This document shows positions 42,001-45,000 of a stretch of DNA of 64,000 bases, one piece after another. Source of the stretch: Escherichia coli (GTDB lineage Bacteria > Pseudomonadota > Gammaproteobacteria > Enterobacterales > Enterobacteriaceae); the NCBI RefSeq assembly GCF_029227855.1, contig NZ_CP074356.1. One strand, written 5' to 3'. How positions within the stretch are numbered: position 1 is the stretch's first letter; the number at the start of each line of letters is the position of its first letter. The position numbers were made by a program.

Positions 42001-45000
42001 CTGACCAAATGGGTGGAAGCTTCTGATAACGACATCCTCAGTGATATCTACCAGCAAACGATCAATTATGTGGTCAGTGGCCAGCACCCTACGCTTTAAG
42101 GTGCTATGCTTGATCGGCAACCTAATTTAGGGGTTTAGCACGTGTTTCTTCGCTACGGCGATGTTGTCCTTAAAACTAGCAACAGGATTGAGGAGTTAAA
42201 ATGAAATCGAACCGTCAGGCACGTCATATTCTTGGACTGGACCATAAAATATCTAACCAGCGCAAAATAGTTACCGAAGGTGACAAATCCAGCGTGGTAA
42301 ATAACCCAACCGGCAGAAAACGCCCCGCTGAAAAGTAATTCATAACCATCAGTCCTCAATGACGATTAAACACCATTGCCTGCGCAATGGTGTTTTTGTT
42401 TTTATCTGCTTTATACTTGGGGCCGACGCCCTGGCGGTAAAGCAAAGACGATAAAAGCGTGCCAGGGATGGATATTCAAAAAAGAGTGAGTGACATGGAA
42501 CCAAAAACAAAAAAACAGCGTTCGCTTTATATTCCTTACGCTGGCCCTGTACTGCTGGAATTTCCGTTGTTGAATAAAGGCAGCGCCTTCAGCATGGAAG
42601 AACGCCGTAACTTCAACCTGCTGGGGTTACTGCCGGAAGTGGTCGAAACCATCGAAGAGCAAGCGGAACGAGCATGGATCCAGTATCAGGGATTCAAAAC
42701 CGAAATCGACAAACACATCTACCTGCGTAACATCCAGGACACTAACGAAACCCTCTTCTACCGTCTGGTAAACAATCATCTTGATGAGATGATGCCTGTT
42801 ATTTATACCCCAACCGTCGGCGCAGCCTGTGAGCGTTTTTCTGAGATCTACCGCCGTTCACGCGGCGTGTTTATCTCTTACCAGAACCGCCACAATATGG
42901 ACGATATTCTGCAAAACGTGCCGAACCATAATATTAAAGTGATTGTGGTGACTGACGGTGAACGTATTCTGGGGCTTGGTGACCAGGGCATCGGCGGGAT
43001 GGGCATTCCGATTGGTAAACTGTCACTCTATACCGCCTGTGGCGGCATCAGCCCGGCGTATACCCTTCCGGTGGTGCTGGATGTCGGGACGAACAACCAA
43101 CAGCTGCTTAACGATCCGCTGTATATGGGCTGGCGTAATCCGCGTATCACTGATGACGAATACTATGAATTCGTTGATGAATTTATCCAGGCTGTGAAAC
43201 AACGCTGGCCGGAGGTACTGTTGCAGTTTGAAGACTTTGCTCAAAAAAATGCGATGCCGTTACTTAACCGCTATCGCAATGAAATTTGTTCTTTTAACGA
43301 TGACATTCAGGGCACTGCGGCGGTAACAGTCGGCACACTGATCGCAGCCAGCCGCGCGGCAGGTGGTCAGTTAAGCGAGAAAAAAATCGTCTTCCTTGGC
43401 GCAGGTTCAGCGGGATGTGGCATTGCCGAAATGATCATCGCCCAGACCCAGCGTGAAGGATTAAGCGAGGAAGCAGCACGGCAGAAAGTCTTTATGGTCG
43501 ATCGCTTTGGCCTGCTGACGGACAAGATGCCGAACTTGCTGCCTTTCCAGACCAAACTGGTGCAGAAACGCGAAAACCTCAGTTACTGGGATACCGACAG
43601 CGATGTGCTGTCACTGCTGGATGTGGTGCGCAATGTAAAACCAGATATTCTGATTGGCGTCTCAGGACAGACCGGGCTGTTTACGGAAGAGATCATCCGT
43701 GAGATGCATAAACACTGTCCGCGTCCGATCGTGATGCCGCTGTCTAACCCGACGTCACGCGTGGAAGCCACACCGCAGGACATTATCGCCTGGACTGAAG
43801 GTAACGCGCTGGTCGCCACTGGCAGTCCGTTTAATCCAGTGGTATGGAAAGATAAAATCTACCCTATCGCCCAGTGCAACAACGCCTTCATTTTCCCGGG
43901 CATCGGGCTGGGCGTTATTGCTTCCGGCGCGTCACGTATCACCGATGAGATGCTGATGTCGGCAAGTGAAACGCTTGCTCAGTATTCGCCGCTGGTCCTG
44001 AACGGCGAAGGTCTGGTACTACCGGAACTGAAAGATATTCAGAAAGTCTCCCGCGCAATTGCGTTTGCGGTTGGCAAAATGGCGCAGCAGCAAGGCGTGG
44101 CGGTGAAAACCTCCGCCGAAGCTCTGCAACAGGCCATTGATGATAATTTCTGGCAAGCCGAATACCGCGACTACCGCCGTACCTCCATCTAAGCCTGCGC
44201 CCGGTGGTGAAAGCTGCCGGGCAATTTTCCTCTCCCTTTTTCAGATCTCATCCATACTGGGTAGTGGCGAATAAATCTCATTTGCCTCACCTGCTATGCA
44301 GAACATCATCCGAAAAGGAGGAACTATGAAGGCTGCAGTTGTTACGAAGGATCATCATGTTGACGTTACGGATAAAACACTGCGCTCACTGAAACATGGC
44401 GAAGCCCTGCTGAAAATGGAGTGTTGTGGTGTATGTCATACCGATCTTCATGTTAAGAATGGCGATTTTGGTGACAAAACCGGCGTAATTCTGGGCCATG
44501 AAGGCATCGGTGTGGTGGCAGAAGTTGGCCCAGGTGTCACCTCATTAAAACCAGGCGATCGTGCCAGCGTGGCGTGGTTTTACGAAGGATGCGGTCATTG
44601 CGAATACTGTAACAGTGGTAACGAAACGCTCTGCCGTTCAGTTAAAAATGCCGGATACAGCGTTGATGGCGGGATGGCGGAAGAGTGCATCGTGGTGGCG
44701 GATTACGCGGTAAAAGTGCCAGATGGCCTGGACTCGGCGGCGGCCAGCAGCATTACCTGTGCGGGGGTCACTACCTACAAAGCCGTTAAGCTGTCAAAAA
44801 TTCGTCCAGGGCAGTGGATTGCTATCTACGGTCTTGGCGGTCTGGGTAACCTCGCCCTGCAATACGCGAAGAATGTCTTTAACGCGAAAGTGATCGCCAT
44901 TGATGTCAATGATGAGCAGTTAAAACTGGCAACCGAAATGGGCGCTGATTTAGCGATTAACTCACGCACTGAAGACGCCGCCAAAATTGTGCAAGAAAAA

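Follow-up and report, generated by a model that had tools for sequence, protein, structure and literature searches.

The sra gene between bdm and maeA of Escherichia coli and the antisense reading frame listed in its place

Gene organization around sra

The window analyzed here, a stretch of 64,000 nucleotides from the genome of an Escherichia coli strain (RefSeq assembly GCF_029227855.1, contig NZ_CP074356.1), carries the genes ddpF, osmC (on the opposite strand), bdm, sra, and maeA in the same order as in K-12 MG1655. The sra coding sequence, which consists of 45 codons starting with ATG and followed by TAA, is located at 42201-42338 on the plus strand, and a Shine-Dalgarno sequence, GAGGAG (42190-42195, +), lies 5 nt before this ATG. 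The product matched the Pfam family PF08136 (SRA_like) with 108.2 bits (E = 2.6e-31, cut-off 25) along residues 1-44 of 45, and the NCBIfam equivalog NF007473 with 74.5 bits (cut-off 35). Its 45 residues are all identical to those of E. coli K-12 Sra (b1480, NP_415997.1), for which rpsV, "ribosomal protein S22," and "protein D" are older names. E. coli JNEC-KY178 is 100% identical to the window over the 2-kb region 41000-43000, and in this genome RefSeq places sra (WP_000841554.1) at identical coordinates, with ddpF, osmC, bdm, and maeA as its neighbours. The preliminary description of the window had proposed at this position a 45-codon ORF with a Shine-Dalgarno sequence, encoding the stationary-phase ribosome-associated protein, and had let this identification stand or fall with a match of the 45-aa product to Sra/RpsV; the ORF is real, the match is present, and Pfam, NCBIfam, RefSeq, and the K-12 sequence agree on the product.

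The predicted protein of 5.1 kDa is very hydrophilic and strongly basic, with a pI of 11.0, 11 Lys and Arg vs four Asp and Glu residues, and a net charge of about +7, and all the features of the Sra family that can be checked from sequence were found in it. Of 5426 complete E. coli genomes, 5413 carry the region 41000-43000 with at least 95% identity, and 5410 contain a single copy of the sra coding sequence, the annotation being always sra. The presence of a 45-codon ORF by itself carries little weight, as 2.8 kb of this DNA contain 49 ORFs with 20 aa or more, but the assignment to sra is significant because of the homology, the identical coordinates in RefSeq, and the purifying selection on the sense frame (see below). 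No evidence against the identity of sra was found. The gene is thus already known, and nothing biologically new is claimed for it.

The lack of sra from the ORF list of the window was attributed in the preliminary description to its small size, and this explanation was upheld: with the default limit of 60 aa, only an antisense ORF is listed over 42150-42360. This ORF of 68 aa (42153-42359, -) starts with TTG and is codon-aligned with sra. With a cut-off at 60 aa, the real and well-studied gene of an abundant small protein is hidden, and what is listed instead is a spurious antisense ORF in codon alignment with it.

Upstream of sra is its operon partner bdm (71 aa, 41884-42099, +), which was identified by PF10684 (175 bits), NF008515 (175 bits), and RefSeq. 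In the ORF track, bdm is over-extended to 92 aa (41821-42099, +) by the use of an ATG at 41821, vs the annotated 71 aa with the start at 41884, which match PF10684 and NF008515 along their full length. The two genes are separated by a spacer of 101 bp (42100-42200, +), which contains the sra leader and, according to the literature, a promoter of sra. Downstream of sra, the terminator scan identified the strong intrinsic terminator of bdm-sra (42368-42405, +), in which a 12-bp stem with a 4-nt loop is followed by UUUUUGUUUUU. The terminator hairpin (42368-42395) with its U-run is located 30 nt downstream of sra, and its folding energy is -16.7 kcal/mol. The same terminator also serves bdm, because bdm is without a terminator of its own. 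From bdm through the spacer, the strong Shine-Dalgarno sequence, and sra to the terminator, the locus forms a compact unit of expression.

Some features outside this region were also recorded. In this strain, yddM and fdnI are separated by an inserted tnpA of the IS200C family (46193-46651, -), and directly upstream of this tnpA Rfam gave a match to the Hfq-binding RNA STnc490 (144.6 bits, 46661-46784, -), which appears to be part of the IS200 left end and not a free-standing sRNA gene. In RefSeq, a gene for a RelE/ParE-family toxin is located directly upstream of yddM, which encodes a HigA-family antitoxin. An Rfam match to the selenocysteine insertion element SECIS_3 (84.3 bits, 50796-50854, -) is located within fdnG, which codes for the formate dehydrogenase-N alpha subunit; such an element is expected in the gene of this selenoprotein.

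Orthologues of sra and selection on the sense frame

To collect orthologous loci, codons 1-9 of sra were written as a degenerate DNA pattern and searched for in one genome per species, and a total of 88 loci were obtained, all in Enterobacteriaceae except one in Peptococcaceae, a chance match. As the search is based on this pattern, it partly sets by construction both how conserved residues 1-9 are and that the orthologues are restricted to Enterobacteriaceae. A total of 81 complete orthologues, including that of the window, were 43-47 codons in length and represented 80 distinct coding sequences and 64 distinct proteins. In Enterobacter sp. EA-1, the sra orthologue (7188-7238, -, of locus L046) comprises only 17 codons, and is either a pseudogene or the result of a sequencing error. 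The maeA gene, which is on the same strand as sra in the window, is located about 300 nt downstream of sra in 70 of 72 orthologous loci.

The diversity at the first, second, and third codon positions of sra was 0.21, 0.16, and 0.44, respectively, and is thus biased to the third position. The pooled pN/pS of the sense frame was 0.32, and without the nine codons that the pattern fixes it was 0.37. With these values of about 0.3-0.4 across 80 orthologous loci in Enterobacteriaceae, sra is under purifying selection in its sense frame. The constraint was strongest in alignment columns 10-24 (pN/pS 0.22), and the values of 0.47-0.48 further on show that the middle and C-terminal parts of Sra are under moderate constraint only, with a pN/pS of about 0.4-0.5. 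Outside the search pattern, the conserved segments of Sra are ilGL.yK.SNqrK and the C-terminal motif tGRkR. A preprint of 2025 proposed that Sra was born within Enterobacteriaceae, possibly de novo, and evolves fast; the family-restricted matches and the moderate pN/pS are consistent with such a recent origin within Enterobacteriaceae, with the taxonomic range of the matches being biased by the search pattern.

Leader, promoter, and terminator of sra

The signals for translation and termination of sra were both found throughout the orthologous loci. A motif resembling the Shine-Dalgarno sequence is present in all 81 orthologous sequences, and the 80 aligned leaders share AGGAG without exception. 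By a strict test for a hairpin plus T-run, the terminator was detected in 66 of 78 loci, with 25 distinct 5' stem arms, and in the remaining loci hairpins were visible with shorter T-runs. The terminator varies in sequence and keeps its pairing.

According to the literature, a promoter of its own drives the transcription of sra in addition to the bdm promoter (PMC10746276), and a clone of sra with its native promoter, for which the primer starts at about position 42099 of the window, partially complements the sra deletion (PMC8407246). The consensus promoter scan of 41500-42600 gave no sigma-70 site on the plus strand within the bdm-sra spacer. Two tentative candidates for a -10 region, CCTTRAAAC and a conserved block resembling GGTTACAT, were picked out by eye. 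The bdm gene is missing upstream of sra in 43 of the 78 loci with enough sequence, including those of E. albertii, the Citrobacter freundii group, Kosakonia, and Pluralibacter, and in many of these osmC is located about 650 nt upstream; the leader elements persist in the loci lacking bdm. That bdm is dispensable for the locus fits with sra having its own promoter.

Two elements were recognized in the leader RNA. About 40-50 nt upstream of the sra ATG, folding of the individual sequences gave a hairpin, UCGC-UACG-GCGA (42150-42161, +), of which the stem is weakest in Escherichia with 4 bp and comprises 5-7 bp in most relatives. Among the leaders that keep this segment, 69 of 71 reach a folding energy of -4 kcal/mol or lower, with a mean z of -2.7 and with many different stem sequences; the segment is cleanly deleted in nine loci (Leclercia, Silvania, Lelliottia, and Pluralibacter). 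This variable hairpin was missed by RNAalifold, as the alignment is out of register there, and the per-sequence folds were used instead. The hairpin is not a terminator, because no U-run follows it. The second element, CCUURAAAC (42168-42176, +), located 3' of the hairpin, is nearly invariant in the leader alignment. Its CCUUA can pair with UGAGG in the Shine-Dalgarno region (42189-42194), or more generally CCUUR with U-R-AGG, and in the sequences inspected an A at the R of CCUUR goes together with a G ahead of AGGAG, and a G with an A. From the 80-sequence leader alignment, RNAalifold returned only this CCUU/AGG pairing, which is weak (-3.2 kcal/mol) and shows no double compensations.

It is conceivable, at a rather low probability, that the hairpin and the CCUUR element (42168-42172) are hitherto unrecognized elements of post-transcriptional control. 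If so, the hairpin could stabilize the mRNA from a 5'-proximal position in stationary phase, and the pairing of CCUUR with U-R-AGG of the Shine-Dalgarno region could gate the translation of sra. The leader hairpin, the CCUUR element, and the absence of bdm are offered as leads and not as findings. The leader also contains ACAGGAUUGAGGAG, which we take to resemble a CsrA site. Binding of CsrA at ACAGGAUUGAGGAG was set aside as a candidate, since the sra leader fusion shows no effect of CsrA (PMC10746276).

Alternative readings, function of Sra, and comparison with known systems

The antisense frame at 42153-42359 is open because it is codon-aligned with sra, in which the Leu codons are CTT and CTG and the Ser codons are TCG, TCT, TCC, and AGC, with no TTA, CTA, or TCA. 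A real gene in this frame, either alone or dual-coding with sra, carries a negligible probability, even though no other ORF at the position of sra reaches 60 aa. Stop-free antisense runs of at least 60 codons are found in 54 of 76 orthologous loci, but such runs are expected for a codon-aligned frame and were not counted as coding evidence; the rarity of TTA and CTA among the Leu codons of sra (1% vs 14% in maeA) comes from only 2-3 conserved sites. The antisense ORF has no match in Pfam or NCBIfam and no Shine-Dalgarno sequence, its TTG start adjoins the sequence complementary to the terminator stem of sra, and no promoter-like site was found on the minus strand near it by the promoter scan. 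The frame is broken by stop codons in 25 of 80 distinct orthologues, and its pN/pS is 1.2-1.3. In addition, the pS of sra (0.611) equals that of maeA (0.628 for the first 92 codons) in the same 60 loci, and therefore no second reading frame constrains the synonymous sites of sra. The antisense ORF was rejected as a gene on these grounds, and the advice of the preliminary description to disregard it was sound. The opposite emphasis, by which the locus acts mainly as RNA, for instance as a regulatory transcript, and the sra ORF is incidental, would draw on the covarying hairpin and the invariant CCUUR element of the leader. It is extremely improbable in the face of the third-position-biased variation and the low pN/pS of the sense frame, the ORF length, which stays within 43-47 codons throughout the 81 sequences, and the detection of the Sra protein itself at thousands of copies per cell (PMC10502375), and no Rfam family matched at the sra locus.

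With sra accepted as a protein-coding gene, the nature of its product must be considered. Sra binds to the 30S subunit at a sub-stoichiometric level of about 0.1-0.4 copy per ribosome, and its gene is induced upon entry into stationary phase in a manner dependent on RpoS, ppGpp, cAMP, FIS, and IHF (PMC8407246), while CsrA represses sra indirectly in exponential growth (PMC10746276). On entry into stationary phase, the copy number of Sra goes up by a factor of roughly 3 to 9 (PMC10502375); the protein appears on and leaves ribosomes together with RMF, and is gone within days of stationary phase (PMC9959377). Deletion of sra is viable with mild phenotypes, among which persistence and antibiotic tolerance are lowered (PMC8407246). 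As a tiny and basic protein, Sra resembles many ribosomal proteins, and could be regarded as a genuine structural component of the ribosome (S22/RpsV) in place of a stationary-phase accessory factor. This is very unlikely, given the low occupancy and the viability of the deletion, the departure from ribosomes within days, and the distribution of the orthologues, all those from the pattern scan being in Enterobacteriaceae and a recent, possibly de novo, birth being proposed in the preprint. Moreover, none of the deposited ribosome structures contains Sra, with no matching PDB chain at E <= 0.01 or even at E <= 10.

Taken together, it is nearly certain that 42201-42338 (+) is sra, a single-copy core gene for a stationary-phase, 30S-bound basic peptide that would act as an accessory factor, and that the antisense ORF is no gene. 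The function of Sra is called "putative" in reviews (PMC10746276, PMC10502375). We infer that Sra is an accessory factor for hibernation or protection of ribosomes, and that its basic N-terminal segment and the GRKR motif probably make electrostatic contacts with 16S rRNA; the mechanistic part of this model is weak.

Among known factors, RMF is similar to Sra in being small, basic, induced in stationary phase, and bound to 30S, and in the timing of its association with and departure from ribosomes. No relationship between the two was seen in sequence, and Pfam gave only PF08136 for the window product. They also differ in that the distribution of ribosome states is unchanged by Sra (PMC10746276), of which no structure is solved, whereas RMF binds at a defined site and drives the formation of 100S dimers. 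The closest system is the sra locus of K-12. Its coding sequence differs from that of the window by two synonymous substitutions, at positions 51 and 96, both at third codon positions, and the flanking non-coding DNA by 1 nt in length, with no functional difference; the protein and its length, the bdm-sra-maeA context, the Shine-Dalgarno sequence, and the terminator are all the same.
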